Origin: an uncultured archaeon
GTDB lineage: Archaea > Asgardarchaeota > Lokiarchaeia > Sigyniarchaeales > SOKP01
Length of the DNA: 14,313 nucleotides
Direction: 5' to 3'
Assembly (NCBI GenBank): GCA_964388035.1
Contig: CAYLZE010000027.1
Coordinates: forward strand, 1 to 14,313
A program made the translations under genes and the position numbers. Below are positions 1 to 14,313 of the stretch, piece by piece. Position 1 is the first letter of the stretch; each line of letters opens with the position of its first letter. The notes beneath the pieces are model-generated. The model worked only from the letters and a program-made list of their open reading frames with translations. It ran no database searches and was not told the DNA's origin.

Positions 1-63
1 TATTTGATGAAAAATAATCTTGAACGTAATAACAAAAGTAGAAAGACAGATGACCAGGATTAG
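1..63 (+). CDS. Probable 3' end of a gene entering from the left, convergent with smc (partial, product unknown)
   Basis: Frame 1 is open from the window edge (YLMKNNLERNNKSRKTDDQD) to TAG at 61-63, 28 nt from the smc stop. It looks like a hydrophilic C-terminal tail but is too short to identify. Confidence 0.45.
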   Translation, partial: YLMKNNLERNNKSRKTDDQD

Positions 64-91
64 GGTTCTATTTTCATCTTAATACTTAAAT

Positions 92-3000
92 TTAAGCATT
101 TACCGTTTCCTCTCCTAACATCTCATCGACATTTTCAAGATCAACGCTAAAAACATCCGTGATTCCACTTTGCTGCATGGACACCCCATAAATTCTGTCC
201 GCATTCACGATATTCTCTTCTCTGTGACTGATGACGATGAATTGTGATTGCTCTGCATACTCCTTTATGACCAGCGAGACCCTGTTGGCGTTCAAAGAAT
301 CGAGAGCTGCATCTATTTCATCTAAAACGAAGAACGGTGCCGGAAAGAACTCCTGGACGGCAAAGATGAACGAGAGAGCCACCAGCGTTTTTTCACCACC
401 ACTTAACATTTCAATCGAGCTGATAGGTTTTCCGTGAGGACGAGCATTAATACTTACGCCCCCTTCAAAGGGTGATTCGGGCCGATCTAATAACATTTTA
501 GCGGAACCGCCTGGAGATAATTTTTGAAAGGTATTAGAAAAAGCACGATTTATTTCATGGTATGCCTTCATGAACGTTTTTGTTTTTTCCAGCTCGATTT
601 TTTCAATAGCATCTAATATAGCTTTTCGCTCTCTTTGTATCGTTTGCCTACGCATGTCAATTTCATCGAATCGTTCTTTAGTCACATCATATTGTTCAAT
701 TGCTTTGAGATTAACGGGTTCAAGAGCTTTTTTCTTATTATTTGCATCAACAATCTGATTTTGTAGCATTGACTCTGTCAAATCTGCCGTAATTATTGGC
801 AGCGTTCCATATTCCTTGGAACGTTCATATAAAGTTTCTATTTGATCGACACAGATAATTTTTTTCGATTCATAGTTATTTAATTTAGAATTTTCCATGG
901 AATGAGAGGTTTTGAAATCGGAGACTTTTTCCTGGATCTGCTTTTGTTTCTCCCAAGATGCATCTTTTTGTGCCAATAAATCATCAATTTCTTTTTGTTT
1001 TTCTTCCTTTCGTCCGCTTTCAATTTGGAGGGAATCTTCAATGGTCTTTATTTGAATATTTAAATTATTTATTTTATTCTCAGTATTTGACTTTTCTTCA
1101 ATTAAGGAAAGGATGAGATTATCTCTTTCTTTATTTTTATTAAGCTCATTCAAATTATTCTGTAATTCTTGCAATTCTTTATTCAAATTGTTCAATTCTT
1201 TTTGAACCGATTTTTGCTTCTTTAATTCTTCTGCTTTTTCCGATCGCAATTCTTCTATCTTATTTTGAAAAGAGTCTACATCTATCTGGATTTTCTCAAT
1301 TTCAGAAGTTAATTTATCTATCACTTGCTTGCTATTCTCCATTTTTTGTTCTGCTTCAGAATTCTCTCTGGAAATCTCTTCAATTGAAGTGATTATCCTT
1401 TTGACATTTTCAAGGCCTCTCTTTCTATCCAAAACGTTTTCCAATAGTTCATTTTGATTATCAATTTTCTTATTTATATTCTCTGTCTTTTCCCAAAATC
1501 TATCTTTTTCTTTATTCAAATTATCAATTTCTTCTTGTATCTGTTTCTTCTGTTCATCAAGCTTTTCAATTTGCTTTTGTATATCATTGATTTTCTCCTT
1601 ATTCTCCTTAATTATACTTTCCAATTTTTGAATATTACCTTCAATTTCAGCAATATTTTCATATAACGTTTGAATTCCTTGCAAATCTTGTAATTTTTCT
1701 TGTATATCGTCAAAAATTTTCTGATTTTCCTCAATTGCTAATTGTAGTTGCGATAAATTATCCCAATAAGTGTTTTTTGCCTCATTTATGGTATTAATCT
1801 CACTTAATAACTTCTTAAGATCATCTTTTTGTGTAGTGAGTGATTGTACTCTCTCTTCGTTTTTATTCTCAATCTCGGTAATTTTTTCATTTAATTCAGA
1901 TATTCGTTGATTTGCATCATTTAATCTTAATTCTTTTGCTTTTAAATTTTCATTATCATGATCTTTATTTAATTGAGTTTCAGAAAGTTCTCTTTCCAAA
2001 GTGCTTAATTCTTTCTGTTGCGTATTAATGTTTTCAGAGATATCCTCTAATTGTTTATACAAATCTTGACTTTTTGATATAGTTAAGGTTTTTAGTGATA
2101 AATGAATATCTTGTAAGATTTCCATTAGATCTTGAACAAATGTATCAAAACTTGAAGTGGAATCTTGAACCGCAATATCTACAGATTCTCTTACTTTAAA
2201 AATCAACTGCTCTATGGAAGAATCTACGTTTTCAATGAACATATCCAAGGTTTGGCGTATAGAATTAATTACGGTTGACATTTCCTGTATTTTTTCCTCT
2301 TCACATTCTATTCCCTCCATAGTTTTCATGATATCAACGACATCAAGTACAAATTTTCTGAGATCCTCTCCCGCTGATCCAATTGCTTCCGAATTTGATT
2401 GTTGGATATTTCCTTTTATAGAATCTACGGAAATTTCTATGTTTTGCGTGAGCATGTTTAATATTTGTAGAATTGCTCTGATATCTTCCTTATTTTTTTC
2501 ATATTCTTCTTCGGATTTGTCAATTTTTATCATCATATTTTCCTTTTCCTGTAATAACTCAGCCAATCGCCTTTGAATATTATCCTTTTTAATATTAAAA
2601 TTTTCTACTTCATTGTCCATTTTATTGATTTTCTCTCTTAAATTGTTTATATTCAATTCTAATGTTTGCTTTTCTCGTTGTAATCCGGTTAATTCCTTTT
2701 TGAAAATATTCAATTCGATTTGAGAATTATCAATTTTACTTTGAATCGTATTAATTTCTGAATTAATTGAATTTTGCTTCAGTTTATATACTTCTAATTC
2801 TTTTTCATTAGTCCGAAAGTTTGACTCATTTTCTTTGGATCTTGCTTTAAGATCTTGGATCTTTTGAGATGATTCATTTTTTTTTTGGATTAATTCTTTA
2901 GCAATTGCCTCGGTATCTTTCCCCTTACTTATTTCTCTTATTCGATCTTCTAGTTTTCGTTTCTTGTTAGTTAAATCTTCTATATTATCGCTCTGTAACT

Positions 3001-4528
3001 TAATTTCGGTAGTATAAGACGTTAAAGTGGCTTGATTATTTGCCAATTGTGAATTTAATTGATTTTTCTCTTCTTGCTTTAAACTTCTCTCTTGCTCAAG
3101 ATCTTTTTGTCTTTCATTTTCGCCGGATATTTCTTGTTTTAGATTTTCTATTAAACTTCTGATTTGTTGCTCCTCGGCACTTGCTTTTTGTATTGCCTCT
3201 TCTATGTTTTCTGCATCTCCTTTCAATAAATTTAATTCTTTGTTCAATTTAATTCTCTTTTCTTCGTTCTTCTTAATGTTTTCCTGGAGAAGTTTTATTT
3301 GGGCTTGGTTTGAGGAAACATTTTGCTTCTTTATAGAAATTTCTGAATTTAACTTTCCTTTTTCTTCTTCTTGAATACCTATTTTTTTTTCCAGTTCAGA
3401 TTGAAGTTGTTGTCTACTATCTATCTCATTTTTTGCCTTTTCGATTTGATTTTCACAATTAGTTATTTGCTTTCTTTTAATTTCAATTAAAAGATCATAG
3501 GTTTGACCCTCTTCTAATTCCATTTGTTGCTTTACTAATTGCTCCTTATCTTGAATTATTTTATTAAGCGACTGTTCGGAAATATTTAATTCTGTTTTTG
3601 TAGAAGACAAATTCGTTTTCAAATTAGTTAAAGATTCGTTTATGGACTCTCTTTCTTTCTCTTTTTCAATTATCACTCTCTGAACATTTTCCATGACTAA
3701 AGATTCTTGTTTCAAGAGACCTTCTTCTCTTTTAATTTTCTCTTCTAATTCACCAACAAATCTTTTGGTTTTTTCGATATTTTTCTCCAGCTCTTTTTCT
3801 TCTTCTTGTAATTCAGATATTTTTAAAGCAATTAATTGAGCATTAAATAAATTAATCTTTTCTTCTAACTCTTTCCAAGCTAATGCATCATTTTTCTCCT
3901 TTTCAACCTTTTTCAATTGTGAGGAAACTTCCTTGAAAATGGCTTCAAATTGTCCCAAATCTCTTTCTGCTTTTTCTAATTCCTTAAAGGTAACATCTTT
4001 CATCTCATCGTATTTTTCTAATCCGATAAGTTCTTCAATAAATTTGCGCCTATCATTACTGTCCATGTGGGTTAATTCCACTATTTTTCCTTGTAGAATA
4101 AATTGGTTTGAACCGTCAGGATCAATATTTCCCATTGCTAATGCATTTAATATTTGCTGACGTGTCGTAATTTTCCCATTCATTTTATACTTTCCAATGC
4201 CTCCTTTTTTGATTACCCTCGTAATCTCAAAAGTCTCAGTACCCCCGGGAAATATTCCCTCCGAATTATCAAAGGTTATCGTGACTGCGGCTCTTTTTGC
4301 GGGGTTCTTACCCGTTGATCCCGCAAAGATCAAATCTTCTAAACTTTTAGCTCTCATCGTTTTTTTGCTTAGCCTTCCTAATGCAAAACATAAAGCATCA
4401 ATAATATTTGACTTCCCTGCGCCGTTAGGGCCCACCACGCACGTAAACCCGCGTGAGAAATTGACGGTAACTGTTCGATCACCGAAAGATTTAAAACCGC
4501 TCATGGAAATCTTTTTTATAAAGGTCAA
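92..4528 (-). CDS. smc: SMC-family chromosome segregation ATPase (condensin-type head) with extended arms and a non-canonical hinge
   Basis: Head motifs: N-terminal GFKSF, Walker A GPNGAGKS, R-finger region MRAKSL, Q-loop ILQG, PVNLKAIEQY, signature LSGGEK, Walker B/D-loop VLDEIDAALD and H-loop ISH. About 1000 aa of heptad-rich coiled coil lies between the head halves. TTG start with AGGAG 7 nt upstream. Confidence 0.95.
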   Translation of the reverse strand: MTFIKKISMSGFKSFGDRTVTVNFSRGFTCVVGPNGAGKSNIIDALCFALGRLSKKTMRAKSLEDLIFAGSTGKNPAKRAAVTITFDNSEGIFPGGTETFEITRVIKKGGIGKYKMNGKITTRQQILNALAMGNIDPDGSNQFILQGKIVELTHMDSNDRRKFIEELIGLEKYDEMKDVTFKELEKAERDLGQFEAIFKEVSSQLKKVEKEKNDALAWKELEEKINLFNAQLIALKISELQEEEKELEKNIEKTKRFVGELEEKIKREEGLLKQESLVMENVQRVIIEKEKERESINESLTNLKTNLSSTKTELNISEQSLNKIIQDKEQLVKQQMELEEGQTYDLLIEIKRKQITNCENQIEKAKNEIDSRQQLQSELEKKIGIQEEEKGKLNSEISIKKQNVSSNQAQIKLLQENIKKNEEKRIKLNKELNLLKGDAENIEEAIQKASAEEQQIRSLIENLKQEISGENERQKDLEQERSLKQEEKNQLNSQLANNQATLTSYTTEIKLQSDNIEDLTNKKRKLEDRIREISKGKDTEAIAKELIQKKNESSQKIQDLKARSKENESNFRTNEKELEVYKLKQNSINSEINTIQSKIDNSQIELNIFKKELTGLQREKQTLELNINNLREKINKMDNEVENFNIKKDNIQRRLAELLQEKENMMIKIDKSEEEYEKNKEDIRAILQILNMLTQNIEISVDSIKGNIQQSNSEAIGSAGEDLRKFVLDVVDIMKTMEGIECEEEKIQEMSTVINSIRQTLDMFIENVDSSIEQLIFKVRESVDIAVQDSTSSFDTFVQDLMEILQDIHLSLKTLTISKSQDLYKQLEDISENINTQQKELSTLERELSETQLNKDHDNENLKAKELRLNDANQRISELNEKITEIENKNEERVQSLTTQKDDLKKLLSEINTINEAKNTYWDNLSQLQLAIEENQKIFDDIQEKLQDLQGIQTLYENIAEIEGNIQKLESIIKENKEKINDIQKQIEKLDEQKKQIQEEIDNLNKEKDRFWEKTENINKKIDNQNELLENVLDRKRGLENVKRIITSIEEISRENSEAEQKMENSKQVIDKLTSEIEKIQIDVDSFQNKIEELRSEKAEELKKQKSVQKELNNLNKELQELQNNLNELNKNKERDNLILSLIEEKSNTENKINNLNIQIKTIEDSLQIESGRKEEKQKEIDDLLAQKDASWEKQKQIQEKVSDFKTSHSMENSKLNNYESKKIICVDQIETLYERSKEYGTLPIITADLTESMLQNQIVDANNKKKALEPVNLKAIEQYDVTKERFDEIDMRRQTIQRERKAILDAIEKIELEKTKTFMKAYHEINRAFSNTFQKLSPGGSAKMLLDRPESPFEGGVSINARPHGKPISSIEMLSGGEKTLVALSFIFAVQEFFPAPFFVLDEIDAALDSLNANRVSLVIKEYAEQSQFIVISHREENIVNADRIYGVSMQQSGITDVFSVDLENVDEMLGEETVNA
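2105..2482 (-). repeat. Protein-level tandem repeat (2 x ~55 aa, period 71 aa) at the SMC apex
   Basis: aa 683-737 and aa 754-808 align without gaps, sharing I..I.Q.L.M...N...S..........S...A..........FV.D...I. Confidence 0.75.
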
Positions 4529-4535
4529 AATAATT

Positions 4536-4540
4536 CTCCT
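4536..4540 (-). promoter_or_regulatory. Shine-Dalgarno site (AGGAG) for smc
   Basis: The minus strand reads AGGAG-aattatt-TTG. Confidence 0.7.
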
Positions 4541-4574
4541 TTTTCCTTTTATATAAAAGAGGAGGAATTCTAAC

Positions 4575-4590
4575 TATAAAATTTTTTTTG
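4575..4590 (-). promoter_or_regulatory. Candidate BRE/TATA promoter for smc
   Basis: The minus strand reads cAAAAAAAAt-TTTATA, an A-rich BRE-like run followed by a TATA box about 47 nt upstream of the start. The AT-rich background lowers specificity. Confidence 0.4.
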
Positions 4591-4666
4591 ATATATTTTT
4601 TAATTGTCCACAAGTAATGCGAATTCAATACAGGTTCTAGTATACCATTAAAATGGACAAGAATAT

Positions 4667-4673
4667 AAAAAAA
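4667..4673 (-). terminator. Oligo-T archaeal-type terminator after the cdc6-like gene
   Basis: T7 tract on the minus strand 2 nt after the stop codon. Confidence 0.4.
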
Positions 4674-4675
4674 GA

Positions 4676-5875
4676 TTAAACTGGTGAATTAGAAAATATA
4701 GTATCGACCATTATTTTTAAGCGATTTGGACTGATTCCCATGAAGTAATTATTTAAATCAGGATTTTTCTCTGAAGAATAACCATGAACATGGTGAAGTT
4801 TTCTTGCTTTACTTAGAATCCCGATTCCATTAATCATCTCAAGCATGCCATTAAATTCTGATCTATCTTTTTCGTAGATTAGAGATTCACAAGAAAGTTC
4901 ATATAATTCATAGAGGTCTTTTAACTTAATATAAAATTTGGTTGAATTGGTTAGAAAATAATTGGCTAAGTTGTCTAAGAAAATTATGGTTAATATGTTC
5001 TCTTCAGAAAGATAATTAACCATGTTGAACTCATCCGTCATGCCTAGCGTTTCAAAATTGTTTTGACAAATCTCTAATATTTCCGTTTGCCCCAAGACAT
5101 CACTCTTTTGAAGGAATGGATAAAGATCTCGTAGAATTTCTATACCTTTACCCGGAACCGGTACATGATGCTCGAAGATTAAATCCACGATATATTGTAT
5201 TAATTCATCATCAATTTCATGAGAAAAAACAAGGGAAATTCTCTGCTGAAGGATTTGGTATAATTGATTGAAGGTATAATAGTTTAATTTATTTTTAAAG
5301 TCAAATTTGGAGAATACTTCAAGAGTTGAAGGATTCAAAACCTTATTTAAGGTATAAATAGAAGTGATATTTACATCCTTACCCAAAAAAAGCAACTTGT
5401 TTAAAAATCTGGGTTCTAAATATTCTGCATTATTAAAGACTAAGAGGTATTCATTTTTTAGTTTTCCATAAATTAATTTGAGTAAATTCCAAAGGTAAGA
5501 GATTTTTGAATTAAGAATTAAACTTAAATCTATATTTAGATTAAGAACTTCTTTTGTTTGAGAGATTAATGTAAATAAGAGTTCATCCACTTTTTTTTCC
5601 TTACAATCTATATTAATTTTTTTTAGTGCTTTAAAATCTTGATTTTGATTTATTAAATCATTTAAAACTTTATTTACTATTGCTTTTTTACCAATTCCTT
5701 GGGTTCCTTGAACCATGATATTTAAACTAAAATTATCCACTATGGAATCATTTAATAATGAGAGAAGGGTATTTTCTTCTTTTTTCCTAAATAAAAGCTT
5801 TGGCGGGAGAAAATTCTCGTCAAATATGGCTTTTGCCCCTACAAAATTAGATTTTTGGATTGTTTTTGCTATCAT
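4676..5875 (-). CDS. Cdc6/Orc1-like AAA+ and winged-helix protein with degenerate ATPase motifs
   Basis: N-terminal FDENFLPPKLLFRKKE matches the Cdc6 'F..ny.P..L.hRe.e' pattern. It also has P-loop GTQGIGKK, INIDC, Walker B-like LLVFNNAEYL, YTFNQLYQILQQR (Cdc6 'Y..eql..IL..R') and a C-terminal WH-like segment (LKDLYELY...LEMINGIGIL). The length of 399 aa is typical. Confidence 0.82.
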   Translation of the reverse strand: MIAKTIQKSNFVGAKAIFDENFLPPKLLFRKKEENTLLSLLNDSIVDNFSLNIMVQGTQGIGKKAIVNKVLNDLINQNQDFKALKKINIDCKEKKVDELLFTLISQTKEVLNLNIDLSLILNSKISYLWNLLKLIYGKLKNEYLLVFNNAEYLEPRFLNKLLFLGKDVNITSIYTLNKVLNPSTLEVFSKFDFKNKLNYYTFNQLYQILQQRISLVFSHEIDDELIQYIVDLIFEHHVPVPGKGIEILRDLYPFLQKSDVLGQTEILEICQNNFETLGMTDEFNMVNYLSEENILTIIFLDNLANYFLTNSTKFYIKLKDLYELYELSCESLIYEKDRSEFNGMLEMINGIGILSKARKLHHVHGYSSEKNPDLNNYFMGISPNRLKIMVDTIFSNSPV

Positions 5876-6184
5876 TTTATGGGTTTACATGTATTTTTAT
5901 TTAGTATTTTTGACCAGCCTATTTAAACCCCACCCACCCAGAGGTCATTGGAAGTAAAAATTTGTTTATAATAAAAAGGCCCAAAGGAGAAATACTTAGG
6001 AAATATGGAATATATATACTTTAAAATAGGAAACTATTCACTTAATTTTTAATTATCAATTAAAATGACCATTAATTAAGGCCAAACAGTACTTATTTTG
6101 GAGAAAAAAGTAAATATTTCAGAAATTTAATTATTTTAATTGTACTTTATGAAAAATTAGAATTCATTAAATTTTTATAAAAAA

Positions 6185-6997
6185 CTAATCAACAACATTT
6201 ATCTGAATACTATTCATGTCAATCTTTTCATTCAATCTAATCTTTCGCATTTTTCTTGGAAAATCTGTATCGATGTTATCAAAAATATACCCTTCCTTAT
6301 CATCAGGAGCTTCTACCACTTTAAGTCTTGAAGGTGTAATATATCCTTTTAGAAAGGAAATTATTTTACTATTCCCCGTGAATTTTCTATCAAGTACCAT
6401 TCCAAGGCTATTACATGCTACTACGGGAATCCTATTTTCTAAAGCCCTTGCTTTTAAGTATATTTCCCAATTTGGCAATCCATCCACTCTTATTTGAGTT
6501 GGAGAAAATAAAATATCCGCCCCATTTAATGCTGCTGCTCTCGGGGTTTCATAGAAGGCCATATCGAAACAGATTAATATGGAAAATCGAATATCATGTA
6601 TTTTAAAAACGTTTAACTTATTACCCGAGGTAAAGTACTTTCGTTCATAAGTATATAAATGAAGTTTATCTTGACGCCCTGTTTCTTCGCCCTTCGCATT
6701 AATGTAATAACAGGTAATCCAAGGTTTTTTATGTGAATTTCGTTCTTCCCATATCGCACCGCTTAGTACGTTTATTTCATTATTTCTTGCTAGTTCCTTA
6801 ATAAAGGTATAATCTGCCCCGCGTTCTTTTTGTAAATTTTGGGAGAGTTCAGTCTGGAATGGGGTCCATCTTTCAGGCAAACATATTATGTCACAAGTAT
6901 CGGATTCTTTTATTAAATTTCTTACCAAATAATCTATCTCGGTGTAACATTTTTCCCTTTCGGGATAAATTCTTGGCTGAATGCAAGCAACTCTCAT
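6185..6997 (-). CDS. Carbon-nitrogen hydrolase (nitrilase superfamily)
   Basis: Glu-Lys-Cys triad motifs IICLPE, QDKLHL and LICFD, plus ARALEN and GNSKII. It lies 17 nt downstream of the HAD gene. Confidence 0.92.
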   Translation of the reverse strand: MRVACIQPRIYPEREKCYTEIDYLVRNLIKESDTCDIICLPERWTPFQTELSQNLQKERGADYTFIKELARNNEINVLSGAIWEERNSHKKPWITCYYINAKGEETGRQDKLHLYTYERKYFTSGNKLNVFKIHDIRFSILICFDMAFYETPRAAALNGADILFSPTQIRVDGLPNWEIYLKARALENRIPVVACNSLGMVLDRKFTGNSKIISFLKGYITPSRLKVVEAPDDKEGYIFDNIDTDFPRKMRKIRLNEKIDMNSIQINVVD

Positions 6998-7014
6998 TAA
7001 TTCATTCTCTCTTT

Positions 7015-7761
7015 TTATTGATCATTTAATTCTCCAATGATAGTTATAAGTTCCTTCAAATCTTTTATTTCATAATCGGGATTTATTCCATTGGGAATGC
7101 GCATGCCCGTAGTCCTAATATCATACTTCCCTCCGCGGTGAATATATACACTGATCATGTTATTTAACAATGCGGGAATTATATCTTTCTCTATTCGATC
7201 TCCAACATAAATGGTTTCCTCTCCTTTAACACCAAACTTTTTTAAACAATAATCAAAAAGTTTCGGATTAGGCTTTCTTATTCCTAATTCATCAGAAATG
7301 ACTACCAAGTCAATTAAATCGTTAATTTTAAGTCTTAAGATCTTTTCATATTGTTTAATGGGAATTCCATCAGTAATAATTGCGGTTTTAATGCCCATTT
7401 CCCTTAACTTAGTCAAGCAGCTTTCCACGTCATCATATAGCTTAATGTTTTCTATTTTTTCCCTATGATATGCGATCACCGCAGCTGCAATGTACTTATA
7501 TTGTTCACTAGGAGATAAGTTTACATTCTCTTCAAAATTATTTAACCGTTTTAAGAAATAATTATAATGTTCTGAAAAATTGCTGCCATAATCATTGACA
7601 ATTTCTTGCATCATTGCTTCTGCTCTATCTAAACTGATGTTCAATCCTAAGTCAATCATGGCTTTAATGCCTGCAATCCTGGCTCTAATACTTAGTTCAG
7701 TGGAATTAAATAAGCAATCGTCTAAGTCAAAAGCCACCAAAACAACACGCTGCCTAATCAT
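7015..7761 (-). CDS. HAD-superfamily hydrolase, subfamily IA (archaeal type)
   Basis: Motif I FDLDDCL, motif II IITDG, motif III KPNP and motif IV YVGDRIEKDI. GAGGA SD at 7769-7773. Confidence 0.93.
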   Translation of the reverse strand: MIRQRVVLVAFDLDDCLFNSTELSIRARIAGIKAMIDLGLNISLDRAEAMMQEIVNDYGSNFSEHYNYFLKRLNNFEENVNLSPSEQYKYIAAAVIAYHREKIENIKLYDDVESCLTKLREMGIKTAIITDGIPIKQYEKILRLKINDLIDLVVISDELGIRKPNPKLFDYCLKKFGVKGEETIYVGDRIEKDIIPALLNNMISVYIHRGGKYDIRTTGMRIPNGINPDYEIKDLKELITIIGELNDQ

Positions 7762-7834
7762 TTTAATTTCCTCAATATTTATGTGAAACTATCTTAACTT
7801 TCGATTTGCAATCTCAAATTGAATACATCTATAC

Positions 7835-7842
7835 TATATAAA
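7835..7842 (-). promoter_or_regulatory. Candidate TATA box for the HAD-nitrilase operon
   Basis: TTTATATA on the minus strand upstream of the HAD start. Confidence 0.35.
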
Positions 7843-7974
7843 AAAATATAAAGTGAAATCATTATTTATTTGCATAATGTAACTTAATTAAAAATATAAT
7901 TTTTTGTATTATTAATCCAAATCAACAACACCATATCTTTTTATACTTGAGGATAAAAATAGGGAGATTCTATT

Positions 7975-9147
7975 TTGAAAACTATTGTTGCATTGTCATA
8001 TTTTCATAAAAAAATAGGCCCATTAAACGCTTTTTCTTATCCGGAATCTCTATTAGATGAACAATTATCCGTGAGAATTGCTAATATAATGGATCAAATC
8101 ATGGAAGAGGGATTTTTTACTCATTCTTTCGAAAATTTTCATTCCATGAATTATTATTTTGAAATTCATTCTGATTGGGCACGTGGAAATCGAGAAATGT
8201 TAATGCTCTCAATCATTTTTGATCATAAAACCACCCCGGAAGTGGAATCGAAGGTATTAAATTTATGCAATGAGTTTTCTAAAATGATTCAAGCTAATGA
8301 AGAAATATTTACTGCTTTTCATATTAACGAATTAGATTATTATGATGAGGAGGATAAAAATTTAATTATAAAGAATCATCTTTTAATGAAAGATCTAATT
8401 AGGGATTTATATCGGTCGACTATCGAAGAGACAAGAGAAAAAAGTGAAGAAGAAATTATCGCTTCTCTATTAAATAAAAAACACATATTTCTAACATTGA
8501 AAAAACTATCAAAAGGACCTACAACTCTTGAGGATTTAGAAGAATGGTTCATGGAACGCTTTCCAGAAAAGGATTTCCAAGAACTTATTAATAAATTGGT
8601 TAATAAACAGTTTATCTTCATCAATCAAATTGGTAGAATTGAAAAATACGTGCTATTATTAAAAGAGGTAAATGCCGAAAGAATACCCCCCTTCAGCGTT
8701 ATAGAGTATATAGATGAAACTCCTGAATTAATCGATTTAATTCTTCCAGAAGTGAAAGAGTATTTTAGTGATTATGAAGCGAAAACTAAAGAAGAAATTA
8801 TAGAAGATGCTTTCGTATTGTTTCAGATAATGGCAGATCCCAAAAAATATAATGTATTGTCAGAATTACGGGATAGGTTAATTCCAAGTAAAAAATTACC
8901 CGAGCTTGTATCTAAAAAAACGTTAGTATCGCTAAATGAAATATTAGACTTTTTAAAAGCTAAAGATGTGATAGATGAATTGCAGCATGAAGGGGAACAA
9001 TATGTATTTCTCAAAACGAACATTCAAATTTCTACGAGTTTTCCTCAATACTTACGAAAACTCTTACCTAAGGAAACAAAACCCGTAATAGCCGATAAAT
9101 ACAAACCAATGAATGATAATATTAATGCGAATAATAATATGGAGTAA
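7975..9147 (+). CDS. Longin/uDENN (folliculin/SMCR8/NPRL2-like) domain protein with two C-terminal winged-helix-like repeats
   Basis: N-terminus IVALSYFHKKIGP matches the F-x4-GP first hairpin of uDENN/longin domains. YFEIHSDWARGNREML resembles the ARG loop of FLCN/SMCR8. The C-terminal half has two similar helix-helix-helix-hairpin units. TTG start with AGGGAG SD at 7961-7966. Confidence 0.72.
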   Translation: MKTIVALSYFHKKIGPLNAFSYPESLLDEQLSVRIANIMDQIMEEGFFTHSFENFHSMNYYFEIHSDWARGNREMLMLSIIFDHKTTPEVESKVLNLCNEFSKMIQANEEIFTAFHINELDYYDEEDKNLIIKNHLLMKDLIRDLYRSTIEETREKSEEEIIASLLNKKHIFLTLKKLSKGPTTLEDLEEWFMERFPEKDFQELINKLVNKQFIFINQIGRIEKYVLLLKEVNAERIPPFSVIEYIDETPELIDLILPEVKEYFSDYEAKTKEEIIEDAFVLFQIMADPKKYNVLSELRDRLIPSKKLPELVSKKTLVSLNEILDFLKAKDVIDELQHEGEQYVFLKTNIQISTSFPQYLRKLLPKETKPVIADKYKPMNDNINANNNME

Positions 9148-9233
9148 AATTCCTAAATTAATTTTCTTAAGAAATATAAATGAAATCTGATCTCATAGAT
9201 TTCTAAATTATAAAAAAAACGCTTCTTGTAAGT

Positions 9234-9512
9234 ATGTCTTCCGAAGAAAACAATTCTTTTGAACACTTGAAATATCTTCTGGGAAATATTGGGATAGAAA
9301 TTTTGGTCTCTATCAATAAGGGTGCAAAAACCCCCAAAATTATAAAATTATTTAGCGGAGTGTCATATAATTGCATTTTGGGGCGGTTGCCCGTATTAAT
9401 CGATTTAGATCTCATCACAAAAGAAGATGATGATTATATTCTAACTCTAAAAGGCATTCAATTTCTTTCATTTTTAAAAAAGGAATGGAATCAATTTAAT
9501 CGCGAACACTAA
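9234..9512 (+). CDS. Small winged helix-turn-helix protein (putative regulator)
   Basis: 92 aa with the wHTH pattern EILVSI...RLPVLIDLDLI...YILTLKG, including the typical Y-x-LT-x-KG wing signature. Confidence 0.8.
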   Translation: MSSEENNSFEHLKYLLGNIGIEILVSINKGAKTPKIIKLFSGVSYNCILGRLPVLIDLDLITKEDDDYILTLKGIQFLSFLKKEWNQFNREH

Positions 9513-9605
9513 TAATTAGCACTAAAATTAATAATTGGAATCTTATTGCTCATGATAAAGATCAGAGAAAGAAAAAATCAGTTTTGGGGCATGACTTAAT
9601 CATTA

Positions 9606-10169
9606 CTACGAGCAGTAGTTCTTCTTGTCATTGAGCTCATCATCTTTTTTCTCGCTCTTTTCGTTTTTATTTTCTACTTGAAAATCTTCAATTTTTTGTT
9701 TTCTAGTTAAATAAAATTTTCTTTCATAATAACCGGGCCTTTTAAAACCTCCACTTTCTTCAATTAATCTCTCTAAACCTTCATTTTCATTCAATCTTCT
9801 TACTAATTCATTGTACTCTTCTTGATTTATTTCTTTCCGTTTTAAAAGATAACTTATAATATCAATTGCTTGTTCCTTCGTGGAACATCTTCGGATAAAA
9901 TCAATAGCCCCTGGACAAGTAAGTTCCTTTATCTCCGAATCGTTTAATTGTTGAGAACAAGTTATATTTGCATTTAATATTTCATTAATTTCATTAAGAT
10001 TAATAGATTTACCCTTAGCATTTAAATTTTTATCGTTACAAAGTTCGCTCATCAAATTAGGAAAATGGGTGGTAAATTCCTTTTTATCGTAATGTATCTT
10101 TAACCCATTCTCATCATCGATAATTGGATCATTAAAAGGCTTATCATCCTTTTTCTTTTTTTCACTCAC
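9606..10169 (-). CDS. DUF2095-like conserved archaeal protein
   Basis: Motifs FPNLMSEL, PGAIDFIRRC-T-EQA--II-YL-KR-EI and GFKRPGYY are as recalled for DUF2095. GTG start. Confidence 0.75.
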   Translation of the reverse strand: MSEKKKKDDKPFNDPIIDDENGLKIHYDKKEFTTHFPNLMSELCNDKNLNAKGKSINLNEINEILNANITCSQQLNDSEIKELTCPGAIDFIRRCSTKEQAIDIISYLLKRKEINQEEYNELVRRLNENEGLERLIEESGGFKRPGYYERKFYLTRKQKIEDFQVENKNEKSEKKDDELNDKKNYCS

Positions 10170-10226
10170 GATTATTTCCCATTTTATGAATAATACATAC
10201 TTTAAGGGGTAAAATTTTTATCCCAT

Positions 10227-10249
10227 TTCTCATTATACTTCTCATTATA
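10227..10249 (+). repeat. 11-bp direct repeat TTCTCATTATA x2 (12-bp period)
   Basis: Exact copies at 10227-10237 and 10239-10249 in the divergent DUF2095/serA intergenic region. Confidence 0.7.
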
Positions 10250-10295
10250 ATAAAAAACCCTCTAGCAAATAAGTTTTTTTCTTAAATTTAGACAC

Positions 10296-11228
10296 ATGGA
10301 ACAAATAAAAATATTAATCGCAGATAAAATTGATGAAGAAGCTATTACAATCCTTCAAAGCAATGGATTTATCGTAGATATGAATTTTCTCATAACTAAG
10401 CAAGAGTTAGAAGAGAAAATCGAAAATTACGATGCAATAATTGTTCGCTCAAGAACCAAATTAACAAGAGATCTCTTGGAAAAAGCAAAACGATTAAAAA
10501 TAATCGGGAGAGCAGGTGTAGGTGTGGATAATATTGATGTCGAGCATGCTGAGAAACTTAATATTAAAGTAGTTAATACTCCCGAAGCTCCTTCGATTTC
10601 TGTTGCTGAACTTACAATAGGTTTATTGATCTCTTTAGTGAGAAATATTTCTATAATAGATAAAAAAATGCATTGCGGGGAATGGTGTAAAAATGATTAC
10701 ATTGGATTTGAGCTAAAAAATAAACGTATTGGATTAATCGGGTTTGGAAACATCGGACAAGCGGTAGCCAAAAGAGCAGAAGCATTCGAAATGAAAATTG
10801 GAATCTATGATGTAGATCCTATTGTAAAACAAAAAGCGATGGAATTAGGATATGAAGTTTTTCCATCTGTTGATGAATTAGTTCAAAAATCGCAAATAAT
10901 TTCCCTGCATGTGCCTTCCACGGTAAAAACTGAAAATACTATAAATGAAAAACGGTTAAGCTTAATGAATAAGGATGCCTTAATTATAAATACCGCTAGA
11001 GGAAATCTTATTGATGAAAATGCATTATTAAAAGCTTTAAAAAATAAAACTATCGCTGGTGCCGCTTTGGATGTTTATAGAAAGGAACCTTTTGAAAACT
11101 TGGACTTATGCAATTGCGAAGAAAACTTGATTCTAACCCCCCATATCGGTAGTCAGACGATAGAGACGCAAAAAAATGCGAGCAGGCAAGTCTGCATGAT
11201 GATAAAAAAATTCTTAGAAAAATCATAG
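10296..11228 (+). CDS. serA: D-3-phosphoglycerate dehydrogenase-like D-2-hydroxyacid dehydrogenase (short form, no ACT domain)
   Basis: IVRSRTK, GRAGVGVDNID, Rossmann GFGNIG, catalytic INTARG, DVY-KEP and TPHIG. At 310 aa it ends after the catalytic core. The family call is firm; the substrate is less so. Confidence 0.8.
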   Translation: MEQIKILIADKIDEEAITILQSNGFIVDMNFLITKQELEEKIENYDAIIVRSRTKLTRDLLEKAKRLKIIGRAGVGVDNIDVEHAEKLNIKVVNTPEAPSISVAELTIGLLISLVRNISIIDKKMHCGEWCKNDYIGFELKNKRIGLIGFGNIGQAVAKRAEAFEMKIGIYDVDPIVKQKAMELGYEVFPSVDELVQKSQIISLHVPSTVKTENTINEKRLSLMNKDALIINTARGNLIDENALLKALKNKTIAGAALDVYRKEPFENLDLCNCEENLILTPHIGSQTIETQKNASRQVCMMIKKFLEKS

Positions 11229-11233
11229 AAATT

Positions 11234-11241
11234 ATTTTTTT
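11234..11241 (+). terminator. Oligo-T terminator after the serA-like gene
   Basis: T tract a few nt after the TAG. Confidence 0.35.
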
Positions 11242-11325
11242 ATTGAAACAATTAACTAAAACAATAAATTTCTAAAATTATGCAATATTCATATTATTAG
11301 AATTTAAAAAGCAAAGCTGATTATA

Positions 11326-11910
11326 TTGAAGTCAGGATATCAATACGTTAAGGACACTTTTGAAGAACACAAAAAGGGGTATGATACACCATATTGGCAT
11401 AGAGGAATTGAATATCGTAAAGGACGTTCCGTTCAACGAGTTGAGAGACCTACCAAAATTCATAGAGCTAGAACTTTAGGATATAAAGCAAAACAAGGAT
11501 TTATTGTAGTCCGTGCTAGAATTAGGAAAGGGGGAATGCACAAGGTAAGACCAAAAATGGGAAGAAAACCCCGTTCTCTGGGTGTAACTAAATATACTAC
11601 GGGCAAAAACTTACAATGGATTGCGGAAGAAAGAGCTAACAGGAAATACCCTAATATGGAAGTGCTAAATAGCTATAAACTATTTGCAGATGGAAAACAT
11701 CACTATTATGAAGTTATATTGGTTGATCCCCATCATCCTGTAATTAAATCCGATCCTAAAATTAATTGGATACTAGATTCATCTCATAAAAAAAGAGTAA
11801 CTCGAGGATTAACTTCGGCTGGAAGGCGATCGCGCGGGTTACATAAGAAAGGTTGGGGTAGTGAGAAAACTAGACCCAGTGTAAGAGCCAATGAAGGAAT
11901 TGGAAAATAA
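11326..11910 (+). CDS. rpl15e: 50S ribosomal protein L15e (eL15)
   Basis: ARTLGYKAKQG, IAEERANRKYPNMEVLNSY, YEVILVDPHHP and RGLTSAG; 194 aa, very basic. Confidence 0.98.
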   Translation: MKSGYQYVKDTFEEHKKGYDTPYWHRGIEYRKGRSVQRVERPTKIHRARTLGYKAKQGFIVVRARIRKGGMHKVRPKMGRKPRSLGVTKYTTGKNLQWIAEERANRKYPNMEVLNSYKLFADGKHHYYEVILVDPHHPVIKSDPKINWILDSSHKKRVTRGLTSAGRRSRGLHKKGWGSEKTRPSVRANEGIGK

Positions 11911-11937
11911 TTTTTGTTTTATTTTTTGGCTTTTTTA
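11911..11937 (+). terminator. T-rich terminator of rpl15e in the convergent gap
   Basis: Consecutive T5/T4/T6/T6-7 tracts directly after the TAA. Confidence 0.55.
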
Positions 11938-11942
11938 TAATC

Positions 11943-12743
11943 CTATAATTTATTAATCGAGATTGTCATGCCCCCGTCTAAAATTATATTTTGTCCCGTA
12001 ATGTAATCTGCCGCGGGTGAAGCTAAGAACGATGCGATATCCGCAACCCATTTGGCTTCTCCGATTCGATCTAACGGAAGTTTTACTCCTCTTGACACCA
12101 AGAATTGACGGATTAATTTGGGATCGTTATTATAAATAGGGGTCAAAAATACTCCGGGAGATATCGCATTTACCGTAATATTGCTAGAACCTAATTCTAA
12201 TGCCCATAACTTGGTAAAAGCTATTACCGCTGCTTTACTAGCACTATAAACTCCAATAAAAGGATTGATTCCATTTTCAGTTCCAGCACAAGATGCAATA
12301 TTTATTATTTTTCCCGCAATTGGTTTAAATTGTTTTTGCCTCTTCATTCTTCTAAATAATGCTTTAGTAACATTCCAAGCACCTTTTACATTAACTGCCA
12401 TCACTTTATCATATACTTCTTCTTTAACTTTAAGAGAAGAATATAATCCCCCATCAATACCGGCATTATTAACTAGTAAAAACACGTTGTCAAACTTTTT
12501 AAACACTTCTTCAATCATTTCATTTACTTCGTTAGAATTTACAATATCTGCTTTAGCTAATAATATTTCACACTCGTGATCCTTTAAAATTAATTCCTTG
12601 GTTTCCTCTAATCCTTTCATGTTTATATCATTCAAGACCAAATTAGCACCCAAGTAGGCAAAACGACGTGCCATTTCTCTCCCAAAACCACTCCCGGCCC
12701 CCGTGACTAATGCTACTTTATTATTTAAAAATTTCTCTTCCAT
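11943..12743 (-). CDS. Classical SDR oxidoreductase (FabG-like, probably NAD-preferring)
   Basis: TGAGSGFG, Asp at the end of beta2 (LNDIN), NNAG, IAS...YSASK, VNAISPG and YITGQ-I-LDGG. Start moved from GTG 12755 to ATG 12743 because AGGTGA (12752-12757) is an SD 8 nt upstream of that ATG. Confidence 0.93.
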   Translation of the reverse strand: MEEKFLNNKVALVTGAGSGFGREMARRFAYLGANLVLNDINMKGLEETKELILKDHECEILLAKADIVNSNEVNEMIEEVFKKFDNVFLLVNNAGIDGGLYSSLKVKEEVYDKVMAVNVKGAWNVTKALFRRMKRQKQFKPIAGKIINIASCAGTENGINPFIGVYSASKAAVIAFTKLWALELGSSNITVNAISPGVFLTPIYNNDPKLIRQFLVSRGVKLPLDRIGEAKWVADIASFLASPAADYITGQNIILDGGMTISINKL

Positions 12744-12846
12744 ACATTCTCTCACCTTTTAGTGTATTTTTTAATAAAGATATTCATTCATTTTATATTA
12801 AAAAAATTGGTTTAGATTTGAAAAATAAAGGTTACTTTTCACTTTT

Positions 12847-14313
12847 TCACCCTAATAAACCTTTTGACTTTTTATAGAGCCCGATCATTTTCATCGCAGG
12901 TGGTGTTTCAAAAGCGATCTTTACATCTAATACAGCGGGTTTTCCTGATGCAAAAGCACGTTGTAAGGCAGATTTTATTTCATTGGGATCCGTTACTTCC
13001 TCGCCATAGCATCCAAACCCTTTTGCAATTTCGGCATAATTCGTATCGGGAAGCTCAGTGTCCTTGTATCTTTTACTATAGTTTAGCTTTTGATTAGATT
13101 TAATCATCCCCCAAGCACTATTGTTTCCTATAATGGTCACAATTGGAAGTTTTAATCTAACCGCGGTCTCTAATTCTTGTACGTTAAATAAAAAACTCCC
13201 ATCTCCCGTGATACATATCACGGGCTTTTCTGGATGAGCCATTTTTGCTCCAATTGCATAGGGAATGCCCACTCCTAAATGCCCCATGGACACCGAATAG
13301 AACGTGCTTCTTGGAGGACGGGGTTTAATATTAATGAAACTCATCATAAAAACAAAGATATCTCCTCCATCAAAAGCTAACAAAGTATCATCAGGGATAT
13401 TTGTTAATACTTCATATGCAAGGCGTTCTGGTTTCATTGGCAATTTATCATACTTTAATAGTTTTTCGATAATTTTGGCATCATTTTGCCTTAATTCCTG
13501 CAAATAATCATTCCATCTGGTCCATTCGCTAACTTTTTCCTTAGGTAATTTCTTTTCCATTGTTTCTAGAAGTTGATTTATGACAGCTTTCGCATCTCCT
13601 ACGATTCCTACTTCAACCGGGCGATTTTTTCCAATCTCTTCTGGATCGATGTCTACCTGAATTATCTTCTGATCTTGATTCCAAAGGGGAGGAGCACCAT
13701 ATATAAGAGAATAATCCCACTTGCATCCAATAGAAAGGACAAGATCTGCTTGACCTGCTGCTGTTCTATATACGTTATCTACTAAATACGAACCCAGAAA
13801 TGTCTTCTTATCCGATGCAATAGATCCTATTCCATTAATCGATGTTCCGGCAGGGATGAGATAATTCTCCGAAAGTTTCTGTAATTCTTGATACGCTTCG
13901 GAAGCAATAACTCCTCCTCCAGCAACGATTATGGGTTGAGAAGATTGTTTTAACAATTCAACTGCTTCTTCAATTGCAGTAGGATTACCGCTTGGCCTGT
14001 AGAGGGGTCTGTATTGTTTCGGCTCTTTAATATTACTAATATCTTCTTCCGATGCTTTTCTTACTAATGCTGTTTCTCTTAACTCCAAAAATACAGGACC
14101 ACGTCTACCAGACATTGCGATTTTGATAGCTTTTTGTACTGCATTTGGAATTTCATAGGGATCTTCTACAGAGATTTGAGCTTTTGTTACCGGTTTCATT
14201 AAGGCAACTTGGTCTAATCCACCTTGAAGGATACCAGTACCTTCAAACATCCTTCCTACTTGAGCTCCAATTACCAACATCGGAATGGAGTCCGCATTTG
14301 CTGCAGCAACAGC
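12847..14313 (-). CDS. Thiamine diphosphate-dependent enzyme (acetolactate synthase / 2-hydroxyacyl-CoA lyase family), 5'-partial
   Basis: ThDP motif GDGSF...NNSAWGM, GRRGPVFLE, IIQVDID and GHLGVGIPYAIGA. The frame stays open to the window edge (AVAAANADSIPM), so the true start lies outside the window. Confidence 0.93.
   Translation of the reverse strand, partial: AVAAANADSIPMLVIGAQVGRMFEGTGILQGGLDQVALMKPVTKAQISVEDPYEIPNAVQKAIKIAMSGRRGPVFLELRETALVRKASEEDISNIKEPKQYRPLYRPSGNPTAIEEAVELLKQSSQPIIVAGGGVIASEAYQELQKLSENYLIPAGTSINGIGSIASDKKTFLGSYLVDNVYRTAAGQADLVLSIGCKWDYSLIYGAPPLWNQDQKIIQVDIDPEEIGKNRPVEVGIVGDAKAVINQLLETMEKKLPKEKVSEWTRWNDYLQELRQNDAKIIEKLLKYDKLPMKPERLAYEVLTNIPDDTLLAFDGGDIFVFMMSFINIKPRPPRSTFYSVSMGHLGVGIPYAIGAKMAHPEKPVICITGDGSFLFNVQELETAVRLKLPIVTIIGNNSAWGMIKSNQKLNYSKRYKDTELPDTNYAEIAKGFGCYGEEVTDPNEIKSALQRAFASGKPAVLDVKIAFETPPAMKMIGLYKKSKGLLG

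Follow-up and report, generated by a model that had tools for sequence, protein, structure and literature searches.

The window analysed here is the whole stretch of 14,313 nucleotides (nt) of contig CAYLZE010000027.1, positions 1 to 14,313, from an uncultured archaeon of the Sigyniarchaeales (Lokiarchaeia; assembly GCA_964388035.1). Its first gene, on the minus strand, encodes a protein of 1478 amino acids (aa) of the SMC family, which we call the giant SMC. The hinge is generally taken to be present in every true SMC protein, and dimerisation, DNA binding and possibly DNA entry or the bypass of obstacles are attributed to it. We find that the giant SMC has the ATPase heads and gene partners of a condensin-type Smc-ScpAB and lacks a hinge, and that a duplicated, predicted all-helical hairpin stands in the hinge's place throughout an order of archaea.

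Both halves of the ATPase head are intact. Positions 1-135 of the SMC_N profile align to aa 3-138, and the C-terminal half carries the signature LSGGE (aa 1375), the Walker B motif FFVLDE (aa 1399) and the H-loop ISH (aa 1433). With intact heads, this motor would be expected to operate like that of Smc-ScpAB. The protein scores 579.1 bits against the archaeal SMC model TIGR02169 (cut-off 729.4) and 566.4 bits against TIGR02168 (cut-off 567.35); the first score stays under its cut-off because the centre of the giant SMC does not align. The TIGR02169 score nevertheless far exceeds those of the Rad50, RecN, ASRP and arcadin models. RecN and Rad50 models together reach 30-86 bits against cut-offs of 408-1087, with 30 bits against 408 for the RecN model TIGR00634, and RecN itself is ~550 aa long. 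We measured conservation as mean column identity across 105 full-length homologues, and found it to be 0.85-0.98 in the heads and 0.53-0.77 in the arms.

The original prediction, made from the DNA sequence of the window, had stated that the centre of the protein holds neither a canonical hinge nor the CxxC of Rad50. Our searches bear this out. The PF06470 SMC_hinge and Rad50 hook profiles gave no match at E<=10 to the whole protein or to aa 600-900, and the five cysteines (aa 30, 47, 358, 742 and 1226) form no CxxC anywhere in the 1478 aa. Neither a hinge nor a hook was matched at E<=1 in the apexes of 30 family members, whereas genuine hinges in the same genomes were picked up at E 1e-28 to 1e-39. 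An AlphaFold2 (AF2) model of aa 600-900, built from a 103-sequence alignment, has a mean predicted local distance difference test score (pLDDT) of 85.6 (range 72-95). It consists of two helices, at segment residues 2-139 and 145-300, joined by a five-residue turn at residues 140-144 (aa 739-743), and contains no beta strand. The stretch in which a canonical hinge fold was looked for, aa 683-808 (window 2105-2482, minus strand), is all-helical in this model. More than 100 proteins from independent assemblies share this architecture, as do 112 species representatives, and this excludes a misassembly of the centre. That the centre could be a divergent hinge missed by the hidden Markov models, or an assembly artefact, can on this evidence be practically dismissed.

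The centre is internally duplicated, as had been proposed. Two 55-aa repeats align without a gap at an offset of 71 aa, with 13 of the 55 positions identical and 32 similar. Their BLOSUM62 score of 66 compares with -36 +/- 17 for other registers of the arms, the next best of which scores 23, and was reached by none of 5000 shuffles. At the level of the family, using profiles of the 105 full-length homologues, hhalign matched repeat 1 to repeat 2 over 55 columns and in the same register (95.3% probability, E 2.4e-8), whereas seven control segments from the arms gave probabilities of at most 0.5% and E>=0.12. The single-sequence and family-level scores together show that the duplication is real and old. 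Since the repeats run antiparallel in the hairpin, they are related by an approximate two-fold axis across the helices, which gives the apex its pseudo-symmetry. Judging from these alignments and the AF2 model, the hinge is replaced by a helical hairpin module of ~150 residues (aa ~676-832), in which two homologous 55-aa helices are predicted to enclose a variable acidic turn.

The helices of this module are as conserved as the ATPase heads. Column identity is 0.90-0.98 over aa 681-720 and 0.92-0.97 over aa 801-830, and falls to 0.46 at aa 741-750 of the tip. The repeats are also distinct in composition, with 38-41% hydrophobic and 19-24% charged residues, compared with 27% and ~40% in the arms (standard deviation 5-7 points). 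This apolar surface exceeds what a two-stranded coil would need, suggesting that additional surface is buried, whether against another hairpin in a bundle or against a partner.

No stretch of the apex is less conserved than the turn itself, which varies by insertions and deletions of 0-9 aa and keeps a net charge of -2 to -9. The tip is therefore acidic throughout the family, as the original prediction had expected. Its sequence in the window is EGIECEEE (aa 738-745), and Cys742 does lie near the midpoint of the protein as first described. The importance attached to this cysteine did not survive: it is present in 8 of the 105 homologues, which rules it out as a functional residue and makes it irrelevant.

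Among known structures, Foldseek matched the apex model to generic long helical hairpins only. The top match was 2ch7, with a template modelling (TM) score of 0.53, followed by fragments of the MukB and Smc arms. When PDB sequences were searched with the apex profile, nothing came below E 0.07; so far as such profiles can tell, this places no solved structure among the sequence relatives of the apex. The coordinates of these features are collected in Table 1.

Table 1. Features of the giant SMC gene and of the adjoining contig end, in window coordinates.
Feature	Position	Strand	Evidence and remarks
55-nt exact overlap with the end of contig C39	1..55		unique in the assembly; links smc to the GTPase gene, scpA-like and scpB
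Whole gene: hingeless long-armed SMC, 1478 aa	92..4528	-	TTG start, stop at 92-94; ORF, PF02463 SMC_N E 2e-42
C-terminal ATPase head half, aa 1291-1478	95..658	-	column identity 0.89-0.98
Descending arm helix, aa 833-1290, with about four ~90-aa tandem modules (aa 833-1192)	659..2032	-	AF2 helix aa 833-900; hhalign
Conserved helix after repeat 2, aa 809-832, part of the apex module	2033..2104	-	identity 0.93-0.97
Apex repeat 2, aa 754-808, descending helix	2105..2269	-	duplication; identity 0.70-0.92; 38% hydrophobic, 24% charged
Variable acidic tip, aa 738-753	2270..2317	-	AF2 chain reversal at aa 739-743; identity 0.46
Apex repeat 1, aa 683-737, ascending helix	2318..2482	-	duplication; identity 0.90-0.98 over aa 681-720; 41% hydrophobic, 19% charged
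Ascending arm helix, aa 171-675, with about four ~97-aa tandem modules (aa 290-672)	2504..4018	-	AF2 helix aa 600-675; hhalign
N-terminal ATPase head half, aa 1-170; Walker A GPNGAGKS, aa 33-40	4019..4528	-	column identity 0.85-0.97

Using the apex region as a query, we identified more than 120 protein clusters of ~1470-1487 aa that are 51-77% identical, and PF06470 is absent from all of them. The metagenome-assembled genomes (MAGs) behind these clusters are labelled Promethearchaeota, Promethearchaeia or Lokiarchaeota, apart from a few from one study that are labelled Thor-, Hod-, Hermod- or Odinarchaeota. We ran the apex query against 151 genomes of the phylum. It hit 23 of 25 in the window's family, the two genomes of a sister family in the same order (27-29% identical), and none in any other family. 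A scan of species representatives gave 112 loci with a giant SMC, of which the 80 listed are all MAGs. The giant SMC is order-wide in the Lokiarchaeia/Promethearchaeia.

To place the protein we built a head-domain tree of 37 sequences, rooted on the Rad50-like protein of the same genome. The giant SMCs form a clade with support of 100/100, inside the canonical Asgard SMCs (97/97). This clade is separate from a clade of ~1150-aa SMCs with a weak hinge (97/97), and the tree leaves its sister group unplaced. Its head sequences mark the giant SMC as a paralogue with its origin inside the canonical archaeal SMC clade. An SMC5/6-related archaeal SMC has been proposed (Yoshinaga & Inagaki 2021, PMC8665677); in our tree the giant SMC heads do not group with the divergent, non-canonical archaeal clade with the weak hinge. 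The clade, its distribution across the order and its own ScpA and ScpB genes agree with the earlier suggestion of a distinct SMC subclass without a hinge.

The operon partners are clearest in the relatives, where the giant smc is followed directly by an scpA-like gene and then by scpB. The ScpA-like kleisin of the relatives is 334 aa long; its C-terminus matches PF02616 weakly, and its N-terminus resembles SAP/HeH/Ish1 below threshold. The ScpB of the relatives scores 117-125 bits. Each genome yields only a single detectable scpA-like gene, which invariably adjoins the giant smc. In the window, smc ends 92 nt from the contig end, and the overlap with contig C39 restores the smc-scpA-scpB link in this genome. 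The scpA-like gene (C39:38092-39198, minus) and scpB (C39:37323-38060, minus) lie ~2.9 kb past the contig join, and a gene for a Gtr1/RagA-like small GTPase (~C39:39458-40105) sits between smc and scpA-like. The scpA-like product has 368 aa, is 68% identical to its counterpart beside the giant smc in genome G144, and has an N-terminal HhH_5 domain (E 9e-14); the scpB product matches PF04079 with 107 bits. By gene order, the giant SMC of this genome too appears to be associated with ScpA and ScpB. The joined neighbourhood downstream of smc spans C39:37323-42095.

On the other side of smc, the ORF at window 4676-5875 (minus) is Cdc6/Orc1-like, with 46.6 bits to TIGR02928 against a cut-off of 181 and no Pfam match. 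A comparable upstream gene adjoins smc in genome G135 and not in G144, and since this adjacency is not constant the gene is probably a mere neighbour. A 390-aa ORF at window 7975-9147 (plus) has no Pfam match at E<=0.001.

These results bear on whether the giant SMC belongs to a ring-forming condensin at all. RecN and Rad50 are joined at their coiled-coil apexes, and the giant SMC could be a tether or polymer of that kind, with apexes meeting tip-to-tip or by domain swapping to give long DNA-bridging rods. The missing hinge, the arm strands of ~500 aa each and the pseudo-symmetric repeats, which could pair antiparallel between molecules, would all suit such a rod. However, the heads group with canonical SMCs and score 579 bits with TIGR02169, compared with 30-86 bits for the RecN and Rad50 models, and the gene adjoins kleisin and kite genes and not a nuclease gene. 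The tip, which varies in both length and sequence, is also a poor fit for a tip-to-tip interface. We consider a tether of this sort very unlikely. Heads, kleisin and kite partners, and position in the tree identify a condensin-type Smc-ScpAB, and the earlier suggestion that its mechanism may differ from that of condensin finds no indication beyond the apex.

Both strands of the arm appear from profile comparisons to be lengthened by tandem modules of 90-97 aa, which match one another in hhalign with probabilities of up to 95.6% in the ascending arm and 95.3% in the descending arm. The tandem modules span window 953-3661. In engineered B. subtilis Smc, arm lengths are tolerated in steps of ~91-99 aa (Burmann et al. 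2017, PMC5344682), and the modules of the giant SMC agree with this periodicity. We also observed a shorter hingeless SMC labelled Sigynarchaeota (P0144, 1296 aa), which has the same apex module at aa 575-750 and came from a profile search of 1.8 billion representatives. This protein suggests that replacement of the hinge is not tied to full lengthening of the arms.

A check for a second, hinge-bearing Smc in the genome had been proposed. The answer is positive, with two proteins returned. One is a divergent SMC of 1160 aa (contig C80:1602-5084, L013, minus) with 213 bits to TIGR02169 and a 29-bit hinge. Its clade is present across Asgard families, apart from the giant clade. Flanking it are ORFs at 5105-6370, 955-1584 and 410-940 (421, 209 and 176 aa) without a Pfam match, which may be its kleisin and kite partners. 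The other protein is a 233-aa ORF (C96:12716-13417, L014:4716-5417, minus) that is essentially a hinge alone. It matches PF06470 with 98.6 bits, aligns to positions 481-660 of TIGR02169, and has neither heads nor arms. The other genome of the genus has a hinge-only gene of 245 aa with the same neighbours (G154:C72, L054:1486-2223, minus), whose product is 53-56% identical. Both hinge-only proteins retain the hinge motifs and end just past the closing GG. A tblastn search of the 96.7%-complete assembly with the canonical SMC of the nearest genus returned the giant SMC, the C80 SMC and the C96 hinge ORF only, and neither genome of this genus yielded a complete canonical SMC. From these alignments, the free hinge protein is best read as a retained remnant of the canonical paralogue.

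The state of this paralogue differs between genera. An SMC of 1193-1205 aa with a strong hinge (E 1e-32 to 1e-35) accompanies the giant SMC in genera g4, g7, g54 and g57 and in the sister family. In genera g2, g3, g5, g6 and g55, no hinge-bearing canonical SMC was found in the genomes searched with the hinge-only ORF at E<=1e-5. In the many genera without a detected canonical SMC, the giant SMC is therefore the only condensin-type SMC detected. Genomes that retain the canonical SMC encode a separate short ScpB of 188-197 aa after it (59-63 bits; L026:990-1556 in G144 and L027:873-1466 in G147), and no second ScpA-like kleisin is detectable in these two genomes. Genomes without the canonical SMC have only the ScpB of the giant operon. 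We also considered a split SMC, in which the 233-aa ORF would be the missing hinge of the giant protein. Since the hinge-only ORF is confined to this genus, and elsewhere there is either a complete canonical SMC or no strong hinge, we rejected this idea as a general explanation for the hinge loss.

The apex module is not restricted to SMC proteins. The search of 1.8 billion representatives also detected it in proteins of ~920-1180 aa that have neither SMC heads nor any Pfam domain (P0136, P0138, P0142, P0145, P0146 and P0148, and L025:178-3255, minus, in genome G089). In these proteins the module lies at ~aa 65-236, with a second copy further on. The apex and the non-SMC family align in hhalign over 186 columns (99.2% probability, E 7e-20), and the conserved helix at aa 809-832 falls within this homology. 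A sub-threshold match to HC2, which is lysine-rich and H1-like, was found at the C-terminus of one of six scanned members and of the G089 protein. An AF2 model of a 520-aa portion of the non-SMC family shows long helical hairpins (pLDDT 88), and all Foldseek matches to it have TM <=0.3. The occurrence of the module in a non-SMC family indicates that the module is autonomous. The family was not found in the window's genome, nor with the apex query in the genomes of the window's family (f1).

A module of this kind could serve as a docking site. The conserved apex would then bind another factor or, by folding back, the heads, kleisin or ScpB of its own complex, and the two SMCs would be held together by heads, kleisin and arm-arm contacts only. 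The non-SMC proteins, with two copies of the module each, could pair with it heterotypically, and B. subtilis Smc without a hinge still dimerises through arm contacts (PMC5526789). However, the non-SMC family cannot be a general partner, since it is missing from the window's genome and from the apex searches of its family, and no conserved candidate partner gene lies beside smc except scpA and scpB. We regard docking as unlikely.

The reading we prefer, and hold to be reasonably probable, is a condensin-type Smc-ScpAB whose apex does the constitutive job of the hinge, with DNA contacts made elsewhere. The gene product would be the SMC subunit of a lineage-specific Smc-ScpA-ScpB complex of the Lokiarchaeia/Promethearchaeia. 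Two hairpins would pack into a helical bundle along their conserved, hydrophobic-rich and charge-poor faces and so join two SMC arms, with the acidic tip as a mere connector. The DNA contacts of the hinge would be dropped or taken over by another domain, such as the HhH or SAP/HeH-like one at the N-terminus of the cognate kleisin. Conservation and composition make dimerisation through a helical bundle plausible, and the engineered zinc hook provides a precedent for a dimerisation element unrelated to the hinge, since B. subtilis Smc with the Rad50 zinc hook instead of its hinge grows normally (PMC5344682).

Several observations weigh against apex-mediated dimerisation. Contact between apexes is inferred, the AF2 monomer is a self-sufficient hairpin, and no known dimerisation motif is present in the giant SMC. 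Some other partner could bind the conserved surface just as well. Additionally, genera that keep the canonical SMC have two SMCs, which may divide the labour between them. A single dimer prediction (aa 650-850, two copies, with its own alignment) scored 0.12 against a mark of 0.42 and weighs on neither side.

Together, these data describe a natural, strongly conserved and order-wide complex of the Smc-ScpAB type without a hinge, in a lineage that informs views on how eukaryotic condensin and cohesin arose. A hinge-bearing paralogue coexists with it in some genera and has been outlived by it in others. The giant SMC, occurring both with and without this paralogue, therefore offers a comparative system for asking which functions of the hinge are essential. 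We tentatively raise a further possibility, which we would not yet count on: the duplicated apex may be an autonomous, transferable, bundle-forming module that alone closes the SMC dimer, making the hinge dispensable, and the free hinge may act in trans. If true, the main condensin-type motor of an entire order among the archaea closest to eukaryotes, often the only such motor there, would work without a hinge. In nature, neither the hinge fold nor its DNA-binding surface nor a hinge gate would then be required, and the canonical SMC of this genus would survive only as a free hinge protein that may act in trans.

We found no description of the giant SMC in those papers on Asgard and archaeal SMC evolution that we searched (10.1101/2024.01.07.573240, PMC8665677, PMC9389158, PMC7055376, PMC5228436). 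A 'hinge-less' SMC clade of marine Actinobacteria has been reported from ocean metagenomes (Sussfeld et al. 2025, PMC12153180). Like the giant SMC, it is a natural SMC clade without hinge or zinc hook; it differs in being bacterial, and its description comes from ocean metagenomes only and gives no operon context.

With canonical Smc-ScpAB (TIGR02169/TIGR02168; PF02463 with PF06470), the giant SMC shares all head motifs, a long antiparallel coiled-coil arm, genes for a ScpA-type kleisin and a ScpB kite in an operon, and heads nested among Asgard SMCs. It differs in having the duplicated hairpin instead of a hinge, in being ~280 aa longer through its arm modules, in missing both NCBIfam cut-offs, and in having a kleisin with an extra N-terminal HhH or SAP/HeH-like domain. 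RecN and Rad50/SbcC likewise have SMC-type heads and an antiparallel coiled coil without a globular hinge, but the giant SMC has no CxxC, its partners are kleisin and kite proteins and not Mre11/SbcD, and its arms are far longer than those of RecN. The cytoplasmic domain of chemoreceptors homodimerises into a four-helix bundle. Its structure 2ch7, the best structural match to the apex, is a long hairpin that is most conserved near the tip; at 11-13% identity there is no evidence of homology, and it serves as an analogy only for dimerisation of a hairpin.

A functional parallel is the engineered Smc(Zh) (Burmann et al. 2017, PMC5344682), in which the zinc hook of P. furiosus Rad50 shows that a dimerisation element unrelated to the hinge works. 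Smc(Zh) is a laboratory chimera joined by a Cys-zinc hook, whereas the giant SMC occurs naturally across an order, lacks a Cys motif, and would dimerise through its apex. Altogether, the points that are new here are that some genera have both the giant SMC, as a paralogue, and a canonical SMC with a ScpB of its own, that a free hinge protein has been kept in this genus, that a contig join restores scpAB downstream of smc, that Cys742 is unconserved, and that the apex module recurs in a non-SMC family.

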